Made by a program: the position numbers and the translations under genes
From: a virus
Direction: 5' to 3' (one strand)
IMG/VR virus record: IMGVR_UViG_3300005549_000002
Coordinates: 1 to 64,000 of that record
DNA length: 64,000 nt
Shown: positions 1-64,000 of the stretch, one piece after another
Numbering within the stretch: the stretch's first letter is position 1
Layout: each line of letters begins with the position of its first letter
The notes under the pieces: model-generated
Seen by the model: the letters and a program-made list of their open reading frames with translations, nothing else
Databases searched by the model: none
Told to the model about the DNA's origin: nothing

Positions 1-98
1 TCCATGATGTTGACGGGGATGCCGCAGCAGGTTGCGTAGTAAGCGCGCATGACGCGGGCATCGATGGCTTTGGATGCGGCTTTCTGTTGACGTGTCAC
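1..98 (-). CDS. Hypothetical protein, truncated by window start
   Basis: GTG at 98 preceded by purine-rich AGAAAGAGAA; reads MTRQQKAASKAIDARVMRAYYATCCG; same strand as neighbours. Confidence 0.45.
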   Translation of the reverse strand, partial: MTRQQKAASKAIDARVMRAYYATCCGIPVNIM

Positions 99-169
99 TG
101 GGTTCTCTTTCTATTGCTCGAGTCGTGAGCAAGGAGGGGCGCCCGTTCACACCGGGCGCCCGACCACGA

Positions 170-1550: not shown

Positions 1551-1596
1551 TGTGGGTCTTTCGTTTCGGTTCGGGGTCACTTGCTACAATCTTCAT

Positions 1597-1634
1597 TCTG
1601 ACGGACCGCTAGCGCAGCGCAAGAACTTTCCCGC
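1597..1634 (-). promoter_or_regulatory. 38-bp direct repeat copy 1, putative leftward early promoter
   Basis: TCTGACGGACCGCTAGCGCAGCGCAAGaACTTTCCCGC, 37/38 identical to 1924-1961. Minus strand reads TTGCGC-16 nt-CAGAAT. Confidence 0.65.
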
Positions 1635-2540: not shown

Positions 2541-3873
2541 TCTCGACTCGTTTCAGGAGCGCGCGTTTTGGGAATGCGTGCCCGGAACGATTGCGACCTA
2601 CCCGTGGGGTCGCGGCGCTGGCAAAACGTTTCTCGGCCGCGCGCTCATCCACTCGCAGGCGTTCACTCGCCAAGGAATTCACGTCGGGCTCCTCATGCCG
2701 ACGCTCAAGCAGGCGCGCCAGGTTTTCTGGCCGGGCCTGCTCGCCGACTTCGAAGGGCCGCTGCGCAAGCGCATCCACGGGCGACCCAATCGCACGCTGC
2801 TCGAGGCGACCTACGAGAACGGCTCGCGCCTCACCACCTGGGGAGCGGAGAACGCGGGCGGCATCCGCGGTCAGCGCTTCGATGTCATCATCGAGGACGA
2901 GACCGACGACATCGCGCCCGAGGTGGAGCAAGCCGTCGTCCGCCCCACCTTCAGCCGCTCGGGCGTCAACGCCCTGTGGGTGAAGTTCGGCACGCCGCGG
3001 CGCGGCCGCGCGGGCTCGCTCTTCGGAAGTTTCAACCGCGCGCAGCGAAAGCAATCCCGCTACACCGGCTTCGCGCTGCGCTCGTGCGAGTCGCCGCAGG
3101 TGGATCAGGCGTGGCTCGACGGCGTCAAAGACGACACGCCCCCCGACATTTACGCGCGCGAGTATGACGTCAATTTCGACGCCGCCGGCGGACGGGTCTA
3201 CGGCGACGTCTTCAACGAGAAGTTCCACGTCCGCATCCCGCCCGAGGAAACCCAGTGGACGGAGATCCTCATCGGCGCCGACCACGGCTGGGAAGATCCC
3301 GGCTGCCTGCTGCTCATCGGCGTGCTCGGCTCGGGCCGCGACGCCGTCGCGTGGGTGCTCGATGAAATCTACGAACGTCACCGCGCCGATAGCTGGTGGG
3401 TCGATGCCCTGAAACCGTGGACCGAATGGTACCCGCGGCACAAGTTCTACGGCGATCCGTCGCGCCCCGGGCTCGTCGAGGACTATCGCAAGCTCGCCCA
3501 CGCGCGCGTGCAGGAAGTCGACAACGCGATCGAGGACGGGCTTGCCGCCGTCGCCGATCGGTTCCTCATCCGCGGCCGCTACGATGACAAGGGCGAGCTG
3601 CTCGAGCGCTACGCCCGCCTCTACATCCACCCGCGCTGCGTCAACACGCTCACCGAGCTCGGCGCCACGGTCGCGCCGTTCGAAAACCACAAGCCGCTCG
3701 ACGGCATCGGGCCCTACATGCGCAAAAAGGACCCGCTGCTCGAGCTGCGCTACCTCGAAGAAATCGTCGACCGCAACAACCACGCAATGGACGCGCTCCG
3801 TTACCCCATCCTGAACCGGTTCGGGAAGCCCCTGAGCCAGCGCAACGCCGCGCCCTACGACGCCAGGAGCTGA
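2527..3873 (+). CDS. terL: Terminase large subunit
   Basis: Walker A GRGAGKT, Walker B IIEDE, coupling motif GTP, nuclease GADHGWEDP and NHAMDALRY. Confidence 0.93.
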   Translation: MLRFNLDSFQERAFWECVPGTIATYPWGRGAGKTFLGRALIHSQAFTRQGIHVGLLMPTLKQARQVFWPGLLADFEGPLRKRIHGRPNRTLLEATYENGSRLTTWGAENAGGIRGQRFDVIIEDETDDIAPEVEQAVVRPTFSRSGVNALWVKFGTPRRGRAGSLFGSFNRAQRKQSRYTGFALRSCESPQVDQAWLDGVKDDTPPDIYAREYDVNFDAAGGRVYGDVFNEKFHVRIPPEETQWTEILIGADHGWEDPGCLLLIGVLGSGRDAVAWVLDEIYERHRADSWWVDALKPWTEWYPRHKFYGDPSRPGLVEDYRKLAHARVQEVDNAIEDGLAAVADRFLIRGRYDDKGELLERYARLYIHPRCVNTLTELGATVAPFENHKPLDGIGPYMRKKDPLLELRYLEEIVDRNNHAMDALRYPILNRFGKPLSQRNAAPYDARS

Positions 3874-56642: not shown

Positions 56643-58072
56643 CGGCAGCGCGCGATCGCTACGCCGAGGACCGCCAGGCGCCCGTCGCTGGGCGTATTCC
56701 CCAGCACGATCTCGACGCCGAGGCGGCGGTGCTGTCGGCCATGCTGCTCGAGCAAGAGGCTGCCGATCTCGTCATTCCCATCTTGCGCGCCGAGCACTTT
56801 TACTCCGAAGCGAATCGCCGCATCTACGAAGCCGCGCTCGAGCTCGTGCACGAGGGCAAGCCCATCGACGTCGTGACCGTCGCGGGGCGCCTTCGCGACA
56901 AGGACAGGCTCGCGCAGGTCGGCGGCAGTGCGTACTTGGCAGGGCTCGTCGACGCCGTCCCGTCCGTCGCGCACATCGAAACGTACGCCGCGACGATTGT
57001 CGACAAGGCGCGCCTGCGCGCGCTCTGCACGCTTTGCCAGACCGTCGCCGCGGAAGCTTACGGGCACCGAGGACCTGCAGCGGAGCTCATTGAGACCGCC
57101 GAGCGCGGCATCTTCGATCTGTCGAGCCAAGACACGAGCCACGACTTCGTCGACATCGGCGAGCCGGTCGGCGCTGCGTTCGACCACCTGATGGATCTCG
57201 CCCGCCGAGGCGAGCGCATGGTCGGCCAGTCGACCGGGTTTTTCCGCCTCGATTCGAAGACGGCGGGCCTGCACGACGGCGATCTCACCATCGTCGCCGC
57301 GCGCCCTGGCATGGGCAAAACGTCGCTCGTGCTCGACATCGCGCAGCACGTCGCGGGGCTCGACGTCGACCCGCTGCGCGGCGTTGCCATCTTCTCGCTC
57401 GAGATGCCGAAGGAGCAGCTCGCCATGCGGATGATGTGCTCGCGCGCGAGCGTCTCGGTGAACCGTCTTCGCCACGGGCACATCTCGGGCGACGAGTGGG
57501 ACCGCCTCGCGCTCGCAGCGAACGAGCTTCGCCAGATGCCGATCTTCATCCTCGACAAGCCGGGGCTCACGCTCATCCAATTGCGCAGCGGCCTACGGAA
57601 ACTCATCCGAGAAAAGAAACGCGCGGGCACGCTGATCCGCGTCGTCGCCGTCGACTACCTGCAGCTCATGCACGGCGCCGGAAAATCGCGCGAAGAAGTC
57701 ATCGCTGGGCTGTCGGCGGGGCTGAAAGAGATTGCCAAGGAATTCGAGCTGCCCGTCGTCGCGCTCGCGCAGCTCAACCGCGCCCCCGAAACGCGCGGCG
57801 GCAAGGACAAGCGCCCGCAGCTTTCGGATTTGCGCGAGTCGGGCGCCGTCGAGCAGGACGCGGACAACGTCATCTTCGTTTACCGCGAGGACTACTACGA
57901 CAAGCGCACCGAGAAAAAAGATCTCGCCGAGCTCATCGTGGCCAAACAGCGCAATGGCCCGACGGGCAGAACGCTCTGCCGCTTTCGCGGCCCCTTCACG
58001 CGATTCGAAAACCTCGCGAGCGGCGAGGAGCCCGACGACTCCGACGAACCCGACGACGACAGCGCAGCATAA
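56639..58072 (+). CDS. dnaB: Replicative DNA helicase
   Basis: AEAAVL, AARPGMGKT, FSLEM, VDYLQLM, QLNR, SDLRESGAVEQDAD, KQRNGPTG. Confidence 0.95.
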   Translation: MTAARDRYAEDRQAPVAGRIPQHDLDAEAAVLSAMLLEQEAADLVIPILRAEHFYSEANRRIYEAALELVHEGKPIDVVTVAGRLRDKDRLAQVGGSAYLAGLVDAVPSVAHIETYAATIVDKARLRALCTLCQTVAAEAYGHRGPAAELIETAERGIFDLSSQDTSHDFVDIGEPVGAAFDHLMDLARRGERMVGQSTGFFRLDSKTAGLHDGDLTIVAARPGMGKTSLVLDIAQHVAGLDVDPLRGVAIFSLEMPKEQLAMRMMCSRASVSVNRLRHGHISGDEWDRLALAANELRQMPIFILDKPGLTLIQLRSGLRKLIREKKRAGTLIRVVAVDYLQLMHGAGKSREEVIAGLSAGLKEIAKEFELPVVALAQLNRAPETRGGKDKRPQLSDLRESGAVEQDADNVIFVYREDYYDKRTEKKDLAELIVAKQRNGPTGRTLCRFRGPFTRFENLASGEEPDDSDEPDDDSAA

Positions 58073-58090
58073 CCCAAGGAGAGCCCCAAA

Positions 58091-58576
58091 ATGAAACCGA
58101 TCCTTCATCGTGTTGGCGAGAAACTCACCGCAGGCGAGCGCGACAAACTGCTTATCGAACTCGCCGAGGCGCGGCTCGAGTGGACGCGCATCAAGGACGA
58201 GAAACGCGAAGAAGACCGCACCTACAACGAGCAGATGAACCTGCTCGACGACAAGATCCAGCTGCTCGCCGAGTCCGCGCGCGACAATAAGAAATACGAG
58301 GACGTCGAGGTGCGGCTCGAGCCCGACGACGTGGCGGAAGAGATCACGATCTACCGCCTCGACAACGACGAGAAGATCCTGACGCGCCCGATGGACCCGG
58401 ACGAGTGCGACGAGGCGGCGAAGCGGCGCAAGAACCCGACGCTGCCGTTCGTCGGCGCCGCCAAGCGAAAAACCATCTACGACGAGCCGCCCGATCGCCT
58501 GAAACACAACGGGCAGGAGCTGCAGAAGGTCAAGCGCGCGAAGGGGAGGGGCAAGGGCAAGGAGGTGCGGCCGTGA
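58091..58576 (+). CDS. Hypothetical protein
   Basis: AAGGAG RBS; charged coiled coil; YRLDNDEKILTRPM. Confidence 0.65.
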   Translation: MKPILHRVGEKLTAGERDKLLIELAEARLEWTRIKDEKREEDRTYNEQMNLLDDKIQLLAESARDNKKYEDVEVRLEPDDVAEEITIYRLDNDEKILTRPMDPDECDEAAKRRKNPTLPFVGAAKRKTIYDEPPDRLKHNGQELQKVKRAKGRGKGKEVRP

Positions 58577-59502
58577 ACTTCGCCGTCGTGATCTACCACG
58601 AGCACTGCGTCGACGGTTTCACCGCCGCGTGGGTCGCGTGGTCGCAGCTCGGCGACGGGGCAGCGTACGTGCCCGCAAAATACGGGAGCAAGCCGCCCGA
58701 CGTCGCGGGCAAGGACGTACTCGTGCTCGACTTCAGCTACCCGCGCGAGGTGCTGCTCGACATGGCGGGCAAGGCGCGCACGCTGCGCGTCCTCGATCAC
58801 CACGCGAGCGCGCAACGCAACCTCGCCGGGCTCACCTTCTGCAAATTCGACATGGAGCGCAGCGGCGCGGGGCTCGCTTGGGACGAGCTCTGTCCCGACG
58901 CGCCGCGCCCGCTGCTCGTCAACCTCGTCGAGGATCGCGATCTCTGGCGCTTCAAACTGATGGACTCGAAAGCGCTGAGCGCGTGGATCAGCGTGCAGCC
59001 GCGCGAGTTCGAACGCTGGGACGAGCTCGAGGTAGAGCTCCTTGGCGACTATGCCGGCTGCGTCGCCAAGGGCAACGCGATCCTCGATCACATCGCGGCG
59101 TACATCGACGCGACGGCGAAGAACGCGCGCATGATGGACGTGCTCGATCACTACGTGCCGGTCGTCAACGCGCCCGGCATGATGGCGTCTGAGCTCGTCG
59201 GGCACCTCGCCGAGAATGCGGATTTTGCGGTGGGGTGGTTTCAGCGCGTCGACGGCCGCTACCAATATTCGCTGCGCTCGCGAGGCGACGTCGACGTCGC
59301 CGAGATTGCCGAGACGTTCGGCGGCGCGGGGCACCGGGGCGCGGCGGGTTTCGATTCCATCATGCCGCCCTCGTGGCTGTTCGACGACAAGCCGCGCGAG
59401 CGCGACACCGACAGACCGCCGGCGCAAGGCGAGGAGCCGCTCTCGCCCGAGTACATCGGAAAACTCGTCGGCGTCGACCGCGGCAGGGAGGGTGCGCCGT
59501 GA
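58573..59502 (+). CDS. DHH/DHHA1 phosphoesterase
   Basis: IYH..CVDG, LDFS, LDHH, DRDLW, SLRS and GGAGHRGAAG motifs. Confidence 0.85.
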   Translation: MNFAVVIYHEHCVDGFTAAWVAWSQLGDGAAYVPAKYGSKPPDVAGKDVLVLDFSYPREVLLDMAGKARTLRVLDHHASAQRNLAGLTFCKFDMERSGAGLAWDELCPDAPRPLLVNLVEDRDLWRFKLMDSKALSAWISVQPREFERWDELEVELLGDYAGCVAKGNAILDHIAAYIDATAKNARMMDVLDHYVPVVNAPGMMASELVGHLAENADFAVGWFQRVDGRYQYSLRSRGDVDVAEIAETFGGAGHRGAAGFDSIMPPSWLFDDKPRERDTDRPPAQGEEPLSPEYIGKLVGVDRGREGAP

Positions 59503-59629
59503 GCCCGTGGGTCTGGAAGTGCTGGCGGCTTGCATGGACGGAGTTCGGCGACATGCGGCAGGGCGAGATGAGCAGCGGCGGCGGCAACGTCTGGCGGCGC
59601 GTCGTTTTCGGCCTCTGGTGGAGGACGTC

Positions 59630-59983
59630 ATGAGGGTCATCTACATCGCGGGACCGTTTCGCGGCGCAAGCACGTGGGACATCGAGTGCAACGTACGGCG
59701 CGCGGAAGCGGTCGCGCTCGAAGTCGCCAAGCTCGGCGCGATGCCGCTCTGTCCGCACACCAACACGCGCTTTTTCCACGGGCAGCTCGACGACGCGTTC
59801 TGGCTCGGCGGCACGCTCGAGCTCATGCGCCGGTGCGATGCGTTGCTCCTGCTCCCCGACTGGGAGCGCTCGTCGGGCACGCGCGGCGAGAAGACGGCGG
59901 CGGAGGGCACCAGCATGCCCATCTTCTCGAGCCTCGGCGATCTCGAATGGTGGCTGAAGAACGACGGGAGGGAAGTCGGATGA
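59630..59983 (+). CDS. DUF4406/nucleoside deoxyribosyltransferase-like protein
   Basis: IYIAGPF, CPH, CDALLLLPDWERSSGTRGE. Confidence 0.75.
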   Translation: MRVIYIAGPFRGASTWDIECNVRRAEAVALEVAKLGAMPLCPHTNTRFFHGQLDDAFWLGGTLELMRRCDALLLLPDWERSSGTRGEKTAAEGTSMPIFSSLGDLEWWLKNDGREVG

Positions 59984-60219
59984 GCGCCAAATGCAATTCG
60001 TGCGATGCGCCCATCATCTGGGCGCTGACGGAGAACGGCAAGCGCATGCCCGTCGACGCCGAGCCCGTGCGCGATGGCAATATCGTGCTCGAGCACCATG
60101 GCCAACGCGTCACCGCCATCGTGCGCGACGCGATGCTGCCGGGCCTCGAGCCGCTCTACAAATCCCATTTCGCAACGTGCCCGAACGCGAGCACGCATCG
60201 AAGGACGACAGGAAAGTGA
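59980..60219 (+). CDS. Small zinc-binding phage protein
   Basis: CNSC..IIWALT..GKRMPVD...SHFATCP. Confidence 0.7.
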   Translation: MSAKCNSCDAPIIWALTENGKRMPVDAEPVRDGNIVLEHHGQRVTAIVRDAMLPGLEPLYKSHFATCPNASTHRRTTGK

Positions 60220-60589
60220 TGACAAGCGCCGAAACCTGGTTCGAGCTCGCCGAGCGCGAGTTCGAAAGCATCGTCGACGCCGAGGACGACGCGGCGAGGG
60301 CGGCGGTCGGCCATGCTCGATCTGCACGACGGCAACGGCTTCGCGTCGAAGCTCTCGCAGGAAACCGCCGAGGAATACCGCAAGAGCATGCGCATCGTGA
60401 AGGAGCTGCAGTGCATCGACGCGGCCGCGCAAGAGGAGCCGACAGCGCCACCGACGGGGCTCGCATGAACCCCGGGCTCCTGCTCGTTTGCACGTTCTTT
60501 GTCGCCGGCCCCCTCGTCGGCATCCTGCTCGCGCTGCTCGAGATCGCTGCCGAGCTCCGAATCCACAACAACAACCGACGGGGCGAGCC

Positions 60590-60802
60590 ATGAGCAAACG
60601 AAGCGAGGACACGGAGGTGCTCGAACAGATTCGCCGCAAGGGATGCCGCTGGCCACACTGCAGGCAAGAAGCGAAGGTCACCAGAGTTTCTGCGCTTGAC
60701 GCCTCCGACGGATTCTCGGTGCCCCTCTGCGTCGAGCATGCCGCTGAGGGCGATCGCCTCGGATATTGGGAACCGTACGAAACGGAGCCGAGGGAACCAT
60801 GA
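60590..60802 (+). CDS. Small Cys-containing hypothetical protein
   Basis: ATGA overlaps; CRWPHC...LCVEH. Confidence 0.5.
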   Translation: MSKRSEDTEVLEQIRRKGCRWPHCRQEAKVTRVSALDASDGFSVPLCVEHAAEGDRLGYWEPYETEPREP

Positions 60803-61428
60803 AAGACTGGACACGACCGCGGCAGACCAAGCTCGCGCTCATCCCGGGGCAGCGCGTCGACGACGACGACGCCACCATTCCGGCGCTCGGCGATTCGATG
60901 CCGATCGCGACGAGGGCGCCGCCGAACCCGCCGCAGGTCGTCTTCACCGTGCCGGGCGATCCCGTCCCGTGCTCGCGCCCGCGCGCGGTGCCGCTCATGC
61001 GCGACGGCAAGGCCGTCCTCGGGCCCGGCGGGCGGCCCATCATCACCGCCTTCACGCCGACGGAAACCCGTCACTACGAGCAGCACGTCCAGCGCCACGC
61101 GCGCGCGGCGTTCGAGCATTGCGACGACTGGCGGCGCGTCTACGCGAAGAAAGAGGCGGTGCGCATCCACATGCACATCGTCCGCCGGCACTGGCGCGGC
61201 GACTGGGACAACTTCGCGAAAGGCATCGCCGACGGCATTGCCAATAGCGGGCTCGTCTTCTTCAACGACAACCGGATCACCGAGGCGCTCATCTCGATGC
61301 GCACCGATCCGGACGACGAACCGCGCGTCGAGGTGAAGGTCGAGCGCGCGACCAAGGATCTGCGGATGCAATTGTGGATGCAAATCGCGCTCGAGAACGG
61401 CTGGACGCCGCCGGCGAGGCCCGCGTGA
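60799..61428 (+). CDS. rusA: RusA-like Holliday junction resolvase
   Basis: VPGDPVP..RPR, GDWDNFAKGIADG, NDNRI, PRVEV. Confidence 0.8.
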   Translation: MKDWTRPRQTKLALIPGQRVDDDDATIPALGDSMPIATRAPPNPPQVVFTVPGDPVPCSRPRAVPLMRDGKAVLGPGGRPIITAFTPTETRHYEQHVQRHARAAFEHCDDWRRVYAKKEAVRIHMHIVRRHWRGDWDNFAKGIADGIANSGLVFFNDNRITEALISMRTDPDDEPRVEVKVERATKDLRMQLWMQIALENGWTPPARPA

Positions 61429-61748
61429 TGGCGCTCTCCCCCTTTTCCATGCACAAGGCTCGCCAGCGCGCGCTCGACGCCGCGCTCGAAGCCAAGCGCG
61501 GGCTCGATGCGACCAGGTGGGTGGTCACCGTGGGCGTTTTCATCGGGCAGCTCGCGCGCGTCTGGAACGAGACGCTCACCGGCGCTCGCCTGGCGCTCTG
61601 CCTCGGCGTGCCCTTTTTTTCCTTGCTCGTGATGTCGAGCGCGCAAGCCATCTGGGCCCGGCGGGCGGCGCGGCGGATCGAAACGTACTGGCCGCTGCCG
61701 CCGCTGCCGAAGCTGCACCTCGGAGACGACGATGAGAACGACGAATGA
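61428..61748 (+). CDS. Two-TM membrane protein
   Basis: TGATG overlap; two hydrophobic stretches. Confidence 0.5.
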   Translation: MALSPFSMHKARQRALDAALEAKRGLDATRWVVTVGVFIGQLARVWNETLTGARLALCLGVPFFSLLVMSSAQAIWARRAARRIETYWPLPPLPKLHLGDDDENDE

Positions 61749-61980
61749 CATTTACGACAAGCTCGCCGCGCACATCAAGCACTGGCGCAAGATCAAGGGC
61801 AAGGGCTTTAACGCCAACCCGTTCGCCGAGCTGAACGAAAAGGTGCGCTGGCTCTGCTCGTACGCCGACGGACAGGAGAAAGTGCTGCTGCGATTCCTCT
61901 TGCGGCTCGAAACGATCGGATTGGAGCAGACGAAACGCGCGCTGAAACCACGCGCGACGAAAGGAAGGGGAGCGACGTAA
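61732..61980 (+). CDS. Hypothetical basic protein
   Basis: GGAG RBS; 82 aa; directly upstream of the RAMP-like gene. Confidence 0.55.
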   Translation: MRTTNDIYDKLAAHIKHWRKIKGKGFNANPFAELNEKVRWLCSYADGQEKVLLRFLLRLETIGLEQTKRALKPRATKGRGAT

Positions 61981-62019
61981 GCAGCACGCAAAACGGTAAC
62001 GGCAAGGAGGATAGGGACC

Positions 62020-62592
62020 ATGCAAAAGATAAAACTGCGACTGAACGGTGTGCGACCTCTCATGATGCACAACGGGCGACTCGCCGACCCGATGAACGAA
62101 TACGTGCGCGAGATGAAGAAGATTACCGGCAAGGGCAAAAAGAAAACGGACGATGACCTTCTCAAGCTGCGCTGGCTCGAATGGCGTGGTGGCCTCTACG
62201 TCGATGAGAAGGGTGCGCCGTGCATGCCCGGGGACAACATCCACGCAGCGCTGGTCGAGGGTGCGCGCAAGCAGCGCCTCGGCAAAGACGTCGATGCGGC
62301 GATCATGGTGGATGAGCCCGAGTTCCCGCTCAAGTACGAGGGAACGCGAGACGTGCAAAAGCTCTACGACGATCCGCGGTTCGTCGACGTGCGTGGCGCC
62401 GTCGTTGGCAAAGCGCGCATCATGCGAACGCGGCCGATCTTCCGGAATTGGTCCCTCGACATCGAGGTGAATTTCGACCCATCGCTCGTGAACGAGGCGC
62501 AGGTCATCGAGGCTGCACGCGCATGCGGAGAGCAGATCGGTCTCGGCGATAACACGCCGCGCTTTGGTCGCTTCTTGGTCGAGCAGATTTGA
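62020..62592 (+). CDS. Stand-alone RAMP/Cas7-like RNA-binding protein
   Basis: N-terminal strand KIKLRLNGVRPLMMH, CMPGDNIHAAL (cf. RAMP iPgss.kGal), strand WSLDIEVNF, C-terminal glycine-rich loop GEQIGLGDNTPRFGRFLV; AAGGAGG RBS. Confidence 0.7.
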   Translation: MQKIKLRLNGVRPLMMHNGRLADPMNEYVREMKKITGKGKKKTDDDLLKLRWLEWRGGLYVDEKGAPCMPGDNIHAALVEGARKQRLGKDVDAAIMVDEPEFPLKYEGTRDVQKLYDDPRFVDVRGAVVGKARIMRTRPIFRNWSLDIEVNFDPSLVNEAQVIEAARACGEQIGLGDNTPRFGRFLVEQI

Positions 62593-62596
62593 GCAT

Positions 62597-62997
62597 GGCG
62601 GTGCGTGGCGCGGCGATGCGTGTCATGGTCGGACCAGGTCGGGTCAGGCGACGCAAGGCATGGAGTTCTCGGCTATCGGAAGGTGGCCGTGAGCTCTGTG
62701 GTTGGGTTTGGCGTGGCGGTGCACGTCAAGGCGGGTCTCGGCAGGGCGCAGCATGGCAAGGAGCTGTCCGCGATCGAGAGATTGCGAACAGCACTGTTGG
62801 TGCGGTCGGGATGGGTCTGGTTGGGCAGGGCCAGGATGGGCATGTCCAGTCCCGTCATGGCTCGGTTTGGCAGGAGTTTGGCAAGGAGCGATCGCCCGTT
62901 CGAGAGGATGGGCGGTTGCACTATGGCGGTGCGTGGCCTGGCTCTGTTGGCCGTGGCGCGATCGGTCGCGGAAGGGCAGGGCGCGGCAAGTTGAGGA
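62597..62997 (+). ncRNA. Array of four GGY-NN pentamer tracts separated by GNRA hairpins
   Basis: Tracts 62597-62661, 62700-62759, 62799-62884, 62925-62989; hairpins 62663-62696, 62763-62792, 62888-62919. Confidence 0.85.
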
Positions 62998-63233
62998 GCT
63001 GTCAACAGTCGACGAGCCGAACTCGTGGTGAACGCGTGGGGACGTCTAAGCTCGGGCCTGACGACGTCCGCGCGGTACTCGGGCTCCACGATGTCGGCGC
63101 CATGCGCAAGGACATAGCTGAGCTGTTCGGAATAGCCGGCAAGTCCGTGGAGCGAATCGTCTATTTGGCGTCACGTGGAAGCACATCCACGAGGAGCGGA
63201 GCCGATGACCGCGAAGAAGCGCAAACCGAGTGA
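62991..63233 (+). CDS. Small HTH protein or remnant, like the C-terminal HTH of phage HNH nucleases
   Basis: RGERVGTSKLGPDDVRAV...KDIAELFGIAGKSVERIV; start codon uncertain (TTG 62991). Confidence 0.4.
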   Translation: MRSCQQSTSRTRGERVGTSKLGPDDVRAVLGLHDVGAMRKDIAELFGIAGKSVERIVYLASRGSTSTRSGADDREEAQTE

Positions 63234-63387
63234 GGTGGAGGTGGTTGCGATGGCGATGTGGGCGCAAGGCAACTGGCATCATATGGCCCCGCCGCAGATT
63301 GAATGGCGACAGCGGCCGCTGGGCACAAGGGCGATGTATCGCGGCTTCGCTCGCGCATTCCTCCGCGCACTGAGGGGGGCTACTTGA
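63205..63387 (+). CDS. Small hypothetical protein
   Basis: GGAG RBS; MTAKKRKPSEVEVVAMAMW. Confidence 0.5.
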   Translation: MTAKKRKPSEVEVVAMAMWAQGNWHHMAPPQIEWRQRPLGTRAMYRGFARAFLRALRGAT

Positions 63388-63406
63388 CCGCCGCCGAAAC
63401 CAGACG

Positions 63407-63547
63407 CGCGTTCGAGAGACTGCGGGCAGCGCCTGTGGTGTCGGTCGCTTGGCGGGGTTGGCTCTGGTCCGGCATGCTCGGGCATGTCCCGGCACGGCTC
63501 CGGCAGGTCCGGGCATGGCACGGCGTGGCAAGGCGAGGGCCTTCGCC
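63407..63547 (+). ncRNA. Fifth, detached GGY-NN unit
   Basis: GAGA-capped hairpin 63407-63424, 16 pentamers at 63451-63531 ending GGCAA, short hairpin 63532-63547. Confidence 0.75.
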
Positions 63548-63567
63548 GGCGTTGAAAGGAATCGACA

Positions 63568-64000
63568 ATGAACGAATCGGTCAAAGTAGCACTTGTTCAC
63601 CCGATAGACTTCGAGTCGATCCGAAAGGGCGACGCCATCGGGCAAGCACAGATCGAGATCATTTCGCAGGTGCGCTACTCGGAAGATCCCGAGCGGTATC
63701 GAATCGAGCAGATGCAACTGAAAGGACAGATTGAGCAGCATCGACCCGATCTCGCAGTGGTCATGTCACGGCGATGCCTGCGCGTGCTCACCGATCCGGA
63801 GCTCGTCGGCTATCGGCAAACACGTCAGGAGCGCGACGTTCGATCGCTGAAACGCAACGTTGCCCTCGGCGCTCGCGTCGACCGATCGCAGCTTGGTGAG
63901 ACCGAAGTGAGACGTGCCGATTGTCTCGACATGCACATCGCGGTGAGCGCCATCGAAGCGGATCGGAATCTGCGGGAGTCGAGAAAGAAGATTCGTGAAC
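63568..64000 (+). CDS. Hypothetical protein, candidate partner of the RAMP/array module (runs off the window)
   Basis: GAAAGGA RBS, ATG 63568, open for 144 codons: MNESVKVALVHPIDFESIRKGDAIG... Confidence 0.7.
   Translation, partial: MNESVKVALVHPIDFESIRKGDAIGQAQIEIISQVRYSEDPERYRIEQMQLKGQIEQHRPDLAVVMSRRCLRVLTDPELVGYRQTRQERDVRSLKRNVALGARVDRSQLGETEVRRADCLDMHIAVSAIEADRNLRESRKKIRE

Follow-up and report, generated by a model that had tools for sequence, protein, structure and literature searches.

A probable VIPR guide-RNA array in a temperate myovirus from a rhizosphere metagenome

A stretch of viral DNA 64,000 nucleotides long (positions 1 to 64,000 of IMG/VR record IMGVR_UViG_3300005549_000002, a contig of 72,612 nucleotides; hereafter the window) carries, next to a gene for a small RAMP protein, five tracts built on a 5-base period, a GGY-like triplet alternating with two free bases. 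This region is very probably the guide-RNA array of a phage-borne Viral Interference Programmable Repeat (VIPR) system. For the five guides the assignment rests on homology to systems described in three 2026 bioRxiv preprints (10.64898/2026.04.26.720920, 10.64898/2026.04.26.720927 and 10.64898/2026.10.15.759431).

As described in the first of these (10.64898/2026.04.26.720920), VIPR consists of a minimal RAMP protein, Vipr, and guide RNAs (vrRNAs), each with 9-16 YNNGG repeats followed by a tail at the 3' end. In pairing with DNA, the NN dinucleotides skip one base of the target, which usually falls at the wobble position of a codon; this 1-nucleotide skip rule was demonstrated by pangenome search, in vitro binding and GFP repression. 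The targets are competing phages and satellites, and 667 loci have been catalogued. The original prediction for the window, made from its letters, had proposed gapped NN guides that skip one target base and so tolerate wobble changes. This is the mechanism that the same preprint reports from experiments in homologues; the idea was right but already published, and the locus is not a new kind of system.

By analogy with the characterised homologues, each repeat would be bound by one Vipr protomer, and the protomers would flip out and clamp the GGY bases so that a helical filament displays the NN dinucleotides. These would pair with double-stranded DNA reading NN-x-NN-x, where x, the skipped base, would usually be the wobble position of a codon in coding targets, and binding would silence transcription of the competing phage or satellite. 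We infer expression, processing, filament formation and the skip rule for the five guides from the same analogy.

The repeat tracts

The five tracts lie on the plus strand between 62595 and 63539 and, read as pentamers, are NN-GGY repeats with a 5-nucleotide period, 11-20 repeats each. When the whole 72,612-nucleotide contig was scanned for 60-nucleotide segments with at least 6 of 12 in-phase GGY triplets, positions 62583-63561 on the plus strand alone reached this value; on the minus strand no segment did, the maximum being 5. The autocorrelation of GG at lags 5 and 10 was 0.30 and 0.25 within the array, as against 0.01 and 0.00 contig-wide. Across the 66 repeats of the window, position 3 is G at a frequency of 0.89, position 4 is G at 0.79 and position 5 is C or T at 0.95, and base usage at the NN positions is near even.

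In this register, the five NN strings that the original prediction had decoded agree with the sequence in all five units, although the first, constant repeat of some units had been omitted. Its string for unit 5 likewise agrees, except that the dinucleotide TC is ambiguous because one extra base near 63498 puts this unit in two registers. The 15-mer said to be shared by units 1 and 4, ATGGCGGTGCGTGGC, is present at exactly two places of the window, 62595 and 62923, and was found in 0 of 100 shuffles, and the GGC-AA ending noted for four units is present in units 2, 3, 4 and 5, with CGC-AA in unit 1.

Period-5 triplets need not be guides. The trp RNA-binding attenuation protein (TRAP) binds (G/U)AG repeats in single-stranded RNA, with a triplet every 5-6 nucleotides, and there too a protein oligomer reads a periodic triplet. 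The window tracts resemble such a site, their recurring AAGGAG is Shine-Dalgarno-like and a 214-amino-acid open frame spans the array region, all of which would fit a TRAP-like protein-binding leader or an AAGGAG ribosome-binding decoy, either of them regulating the gene downstream, or else a G-rich microsatellite arisen by chance or a coding region rich in Gly and Trp. We regard such readings as scarcely credible. A 5-nucleotide period is incompatible with codon periodicity; the tracts are confined to one strand and occur nowhere else in the contig; they accompany a Vipr homologue in phages of E. coli, Pseudomonas and Mycobacterium; and their partner is a RAMP protein, while no gene directly follows units 1-3. 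The spacer bases are inert in TRAP, whereas here they would inform DNA pairing, with a RAMP partner that forms a filament in a homologue. A TRAP-like RNA scaffold, our initial idea, was dropped given the RAMP fold and the VIPR preprints.

Searches for other kinds of element in and around the presumed guide array were negative. With Rfam at E values up to 10 over 58000-64000, the array was unmatched save for opposite-strand noise (E 7.6), and a scan of 61300-64000 returned no promoter-like site and terminator-like sites at the shuffle rate.

The partner protein

The array starts three bases past the stop codon of a gene for a 190-amino-acid protein (62020-62592) that belongs to PHROG family phrog_4652 (E 1.4e-56). 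By phmmer it matches PDB entry 36pp_D, 'SUSP1 Vipr protein', over residues 2-188 of both (E 9.9e-31), and a check of its identity with a family profile gave E 1.1e-54. Neither Pfam nor PADLOC gave a family for Vipr, and the PADLOC defence models gave no sequence-level match among the four proteins scanned.

An AF2 model of the window Vipr built with a 67-sequence alignment reached a pLDDT of 94.3 and was used in place of a single-sequence model, which was poor (pLDDT 51). With Foldseek the top match of this model was Csm3/Cas7 (E 1.9e-6) and every listed match was a Cas7-type RAMP. With VIA-align, gRAMP, Cmr4 and Csm3 came first (Z 9.9-8.8), the 20 best rows were all CRISPR RAMP subunits (Z 9.9-7.7), and type VII and type IV Cas7 subunits were also among the best structural matches. 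The window Vipr is thus predicted to have a minimal Cas7-like RAMP fold.

In its modelled RAMP fold, with an RRM core, a glycine-rich loop and a thumb, the protein resembles the Cas7 backbone of Class 1 CRISPR systems (Csm3, Cmr4, Csf2 and gRAMP), and both kinds of system would have one protomer per fixed RNA step and a guide capped by a structured handle. They differ in the step, which is 5 nucleotides with three guide bases sequestered in VIPR and 6 nucleotides with one base flipped in CRISPR. Unlike Class 1 CRISPR, the system is carried by a phage, its guide information is non-contiguous and it has no array of identical repeats; TRF found no long-period array.

Cryo-EM structures of Vipr place H17, R138, D177, W/Y178, R179 and K33 in contact with the GGY and skipped bases, and mutation of D177, R138 or K33 abolishes silencing (10.64898/2026.04.26.720927). 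In both systems solved in that preprint, the G-loop pair W/Y178 and R179 stacks on G2 and Y3. The window Vipr keeps H17, K33, R138 and D177, all four of which are invariant in a 6-sequence alignment; in the 67-sequence alignment H17 is found in 65 sequences, R138 in 67, D177 in 62 and K33 in 51.

Layout of the cassette

The cassette spans approximately 62003-64047 and consists of vipr, four tandem vrRNAs, a 0.4-kb insertion, a fifth vrRNA and a gene that we call vap-like, as follows.

62020..62592, plus strand: vipr gene, 190 amino acids, minimal RAMP protein, phrog_4652
62595..62694, plus strand: vrRNA unit 1; tract 62595-62664 with variable NN of GG GT GC GA GT AT CG CA CG CA GA AA; terminal repeat ATGGA; tail hairpin 62665-62694
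62698..62792, plus strand: vrRNA unit 2; tract 62698-62762 with variable NN of TG TT GT GG AC AA GG TC AG GC AT; terminal repeat AAGGA; tail hairpin 62763-62792
62797..62919, plus strand: vrRNA unit 3; tract 62797-62887 with 14 variable NN; tail hairpin 62888-62919
62923..62997, plus strand: vrRNA unit 4; tract opens with the 15-mer of unit 1; canonical tail hairpin absent
63045..63387, plus strand: stretch with two small overlapping open reading frames (ORFs) of about 62 and 60 amino acids, missing from the array of the related locus L001
63444..63550, plus strand: vrRNA unit 5; tract 63444-63539 of about 20 repeats in two registers; terminal repeat GAGGG, then a short hairpin
63568..64000 (to contig position 64047, past the window), plus strand: vap-like accessory gene, 159 amino acids

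Each unit is about 100-125 nucleotides long and comprises a tract of 11-15 NN-GGY pentamers and a final repeat with a purine as its last base (GGA or GGG), to which units 1-3 add a 13-base-pair hairpin. Unit 1 folds with a z score of -5.5 relative to shuffles. Unit 3 carries an 11-nucleotide duplication of the tract/tail junction (62865-62888, by TRF) and shifts register by +1 close to the 3' end, and unit 5 adjoins the vap-like gene directly upstream.

The tails share a structure more than a sequence. We aligned 12 tails, three from the window (units 1-3) and nine from L001, a metagenomic locus with a closely related Vipr. A 13-base-pair hairpin with a GNRA-like tetraloop fits all 12, and 93.6% of stem cells are paired as compared with 68.7% in shuffles. 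Mean column identity is 65%, stem sequence varies between units, and compensatory changes are found at 10 of the 13 stem pairs. The covariation score of 0.78 compares with 0.25 in shuffles and at most 0.16 with slid partners, and 0 of 500 shuffles reached it. In unit 5 of the window and in the final unit of L001 the hairpin is shorter.

The tail hairpin starts directly 3' of the purine-ending repeat. In a survey of automatically called tract ends in ten loci (the window, L001-L007, L010 and L011), the last repeat ended in a purine at 30 of 37 called ends, as against 27 of 340 internal GG repeats. Four of the seven exceptions are register slips, after which the tract continues to a purine-ended repeat, and one is the internal break of unit 5 at 63498. 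According to the cryo-EM work, the Y3 pocket of Vipr excludes purines (10.64898/2026.04.26.720927), and for this reason a terminal purine could stop Vipr polymerisation at the 3' end. The terminal purine repeat could thus be the signal that ends the filament; the text examined of 10.64898/2026.04.26.720920 and 10.64898/2026.04.26.720927 does not mention it.

The protein encoded at 63568-64047 has a counterpart after the L001 array (71% identity). A word-based search for homologues recovered itself and the L001 copy only, and PHROG, Pfam and PADLOC gave no match to the window protein; 290 homologues were found at E values of at most 1e-3. Aligned by hhalign, its family (alignment A6, 64 sequences) matched the downstream neighbours of vipr in wV8, LESphi2, LittleE and the metagenomic locus L011 (alignment A4) with a probability of 97.3% and E 1.7e-11 over 121 columns; a shallow profile of two sequences gave only E 0.021. 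Three of the four A4 members belong to phrog_5926 (E at most 4e-31), and L011 is a weak match (E 0.026). From their position, the A4 genes are presumably the published vap1.

Relatives and exchange of the cassette

Relatives of the window Vipr in viral contigs have 94% (L001) and 34% identity, and a metagenome scan for close relatives gave five loci, one of which (L009) is the same 11,069-nucleotide contig as L001. By tblastn, Vipr matched 130 phage records, 77 of them Escherichia phages; the matching phages include Felixounaviruses (about 34% protein identity to the window Vipr), mycobacteriophage LittleE, Pseudomonas phage LESphi2 and Gordonia phages. In every locus examined (the window, L001-L004, LittleE, LESphi2 and wV8), period-5 GG(Y) tracts adjoin the vipr homologue on the same strand, and in none of these loci is there such a tract on the opposite strand. 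L010 and L011 likewise have period-5 tracts beside vipr on the same strand.

The comparison of the window with L001, a single relative, used two pairs of units that are orthologous by position and tail, a third pair having been dropped for a register slip. NN positions were identical at 10 of 44, which is the chance level, and GGY positions at 40 of 66. The NN positions are thus less conserved than GGY in this comparison; equal conservation of the two among relatives was the outcome that the original prediction had named as one that would speak against a code. Tails were identical at 65 of 84 positions and vipr at 484 of 573 nucleotides.

Outside the cassette the two phages appear unrelated. 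A blastn comparison of the window contig with the 8.2-kb L001 locus found two homologous blocks only.

Window 62003-62722, L001 3575-4311: vipr and first vrRNA, 80% identity
Window 63496-64000 (to contig position 64010), L001 5163-5674: last vrRNA and vap-like gene, 72% identity

Since the shared DNA is confined to these two blocks of the cassette, it seems that phages with no other relationship exchange the VIPR cassette as a module, with the middle of the array replaced. The ORFs at 63045-63387 occupy the place where L001 carries further vrRNA units, with unit 4 just upstream. By blastn this stretch has no homology to L001, it has no PADLOC hit, and its ORF of about 62 amino acids has a weak HTH_7 match that falls below the cutoff (E 0.024).

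Satellite-borne solo vrRNAs can redirect the VIPR machinery of a phage (10.64898/2026.10.15.759431), and by this precedent the main role of the window RNAs could be to decoy or redirect the Vipr of a competitor, and not to guide the one encoded beside them. We consider this highly improbable: the window units are not solo but have an intact vipr on one side and a vap-like gene on the other, and L001 repeats the same cassette order.

Some relatives have tracts of other kinds. Upstream of vipr, L001 has a degenerate period-5 tract (3418-3535) that ends in AAGGG and a short hairpin; at the corresponding place the window has an 82-amino-acid ORF (61732-61980) and no upstream tract. L011, a metagenome contig with a 46%-identical Vipr, has flanking NN-GGA tracts at 938-1051, 1606-1719 and 2180-2409, with a different consensus in which every repeat has a purine, each tract ending in GGATTTTTTAC, and with terminator-like U runs. 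Against 301 sampled Myxococcota genomes the Vipr profile gave three weak partial matches only. Two of these have period-5 GG tracts on the same strand (L050 1913-2236; L048 1368-1486 and 2052-2155), and because the tracts stand beside Vipr-profile matches, distant VIPR-like loci, as judged from sequence, exist in Myxococcota.

Target searches

We searched for targets by the 1-nucleotide skip. In the phage's own contig, the best matches of the window guides ranged from 12/16 to 19/26 (64-75% of NN), within the range of shuffles and all under the published threshold for a target of at least 80% NN match (10.64898/2026.04.26.720920). The gap test suggested in the original prediction, with gaps of 0-3 nucleotides, gave no target signal in local DNA, to which it was confined (the own contig and seven loci). 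The sole signal above shuffles was at gap 3, where each guide matches its own gene. A further search, with ten guides of L001 against 164 kb of local DNA that included the window contig, gave no match above shuffles.

The viral_contigs collection was scanned seven times with exact 1-nucleotide-skip seeds, six times with window guides and once with a guide of LESphi2, a Pseudomonas phage with a well-sampled host, as a control. Seeds of 16 bases from units 3, 4, 5 and 2 gave 6, 3, 5 and 12 matches, respectively (26 in total). The LESphi2 guide found no target in viral_contigs either, and for this reason the exact-seed search is too insensitive to count against the VIPR model. With the full unit 1 pattern and up to 3 mismatches, 201 Polyangiales genomes gave two matches as compared with none for a reversed-pattern control.

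Evidence against an active array

Several observations weigh against a working VIPR array in the window. With 42 of the 66 repeats (64%) exactly GGY, the motif is degenerate. Residues 178 and 179 of the window Vipr are N and T, so that the G-loop reads D-N-T in place of the D-(W/Y/F)-R found in most of the family. Unit 5 is interrupted by its extra base near 63498, and the region behind unit 4 (62985-63045) folds no better than shuffles (z +0.54). In the searches, 18-base seeds from units 1 and 2 had no match in viral_contigs; NN outside the seed agreed at 62 of 208 positions (30%) in the 26 shorter-seed matches, which is chance; and the two Polyangiales matches to unit 1, in the housekeeping-type genes of release factor RF3 and a hydrolase and each with 3 mismatches, at A/T positions, were judged to be chance and rejected as targets.

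Such features would be expected of a decaying or partly inactive locus, in which protein and RNAs are VIPR-related and the clade no longer guides DNA binding. At position 178 of the 67-sequence alignment W, Y or F is found in 61 and N in 3, and at position 179 R in 53 and T in 10. Exact GGY makes up 64% of repeats in the window and 59% in L001, as against 81-89% in four other loci, mainly as a result of U at the second G (14-16% of repeats in the window and L001, at most 3% in five other loci). Moreover, unit 4 is without a tail, the array is broken by an insertion and searches with the window guides found no target. We nevertheless consider decay unlikely. The vipr frame is intact, with 94% protein identity between two otherwise unrelated phages; H17, K33, R138 and D177 are retained; tail pairing is maintained through compensatory changes; and the NN tracts diverge between relatives while their frame is maintained. 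Together these features argue for selection on the window cassette.

Unit 4 was probably truncated by the adjoining insertion. Because this unit is without the canonical tail, the functional guides may be four rather than five.

Comparison with characterised VIPR systems

Among characterised VIPR systems, the window locus most resembles type II, represented by SUSP1 and a Pseudomonas fulva prophage (10.64898/2026.04.26.720920, 10.64898/2026.04.26.720927), and we apply the type II label by resemblance. As far as those preprints describe them, both are phage-borne, with a homologous Vipr of about 190 amino acids and with NN-GGY vrRNAs (9-16 repeats) that have a structured 3' tail, lie on the vipr strand and have no self-targets. 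A small accessory gene is a further likeness to VIPR phages, being a remote homologue of the vipr-following gene in wV8, LESphi2 and LittleE.

The differences concern both RNA and protein. The window tail is a 13-base-pair hairpin with a GNRA-like loop and a stem that varies between units, whereas the SUSP1 tail is described as invariable, with a pseudoknot. In the window the vap-like gene is separated from vipr by the array, while in type II VIPR as described the array flanks a vipr-vap pair, and the 0.4-kb stretch with two small ORFs that interrupts the window array sets it apart from the VIPR systems characterised in those preprints. The G-loop has N178 and T179 in place of W/Y and R, and the window GGY is looser, with G2 a G in 0.79 of repeats as against at least 0.92 in other loci. 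This looser GGY coincides with the missing aromatic at 178, a correlation that comes from one clade only. Tentatively, the clade might be a distinct VIPR variant with another grip on the guide, without the aromatic/Arg clamp and tolerant of U at G2, and another way of bounding it, by a terminal purine repeat and a hairpin with a GNRA-like loop; we regard this as possible rather than probable.

Phage and host

The contig has genes for terminase, portal, major head, sheath, tape measure, baseplate and endolysin proteins, together with a serine integrase, a RecE-like exonuclease, DnaB and RusA. Its G+C content is 66%. Because its first and last 100 nucleotides are identical (window 1-100 and contig 72513-72612), the genome is probably a closed circle of about 72.5 kb. 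Among sequencing runs, none of RNA was listed as containing the sequence; one of DNA was, and it may be the source sample. The best named relative of its large terminase subunit (TerL), a weak match with 35% identity, is in a metagenome-assembled genome of Polyangiaceae. A myxobacterial host, for which this TerL relative and the three weak Vipr-profile matches among the 301 Myxococcota genomes were the evidence, was not adopted.

Across the circular junction an element of about 30 nucleotides (core ...CTGACGGACCGCTAGCGCAGCGCAAG...) occurs five times, with the copies approximately 285-327 nucleotides apart, at window positions 1553-1634 and 1880-1961 and at L013 9698-10333 (contig 70697-71332). 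Each copy follows the reverse-complement start codon of a small minus-strand ORF, and the element may be a repeated promoter, operator or leader.

Significance

The window locus adds to the VIPR family with some variant features. It places VIPR in a temperate myovirus whose complete 72.5-kb genome was recovered from a rhizosphere metagenome, and it presents a vipr-vrRNA-vap cassette that seems to be swapped as a unit among otherwise unrelated phages. It also offers natural variants of the system: a hairpin cap in place of a pseudoknot, a G-loop without the aromatic/Arg pair that goes with a looser GGY, and a terminal GGR repeat that may set the length of the filament.

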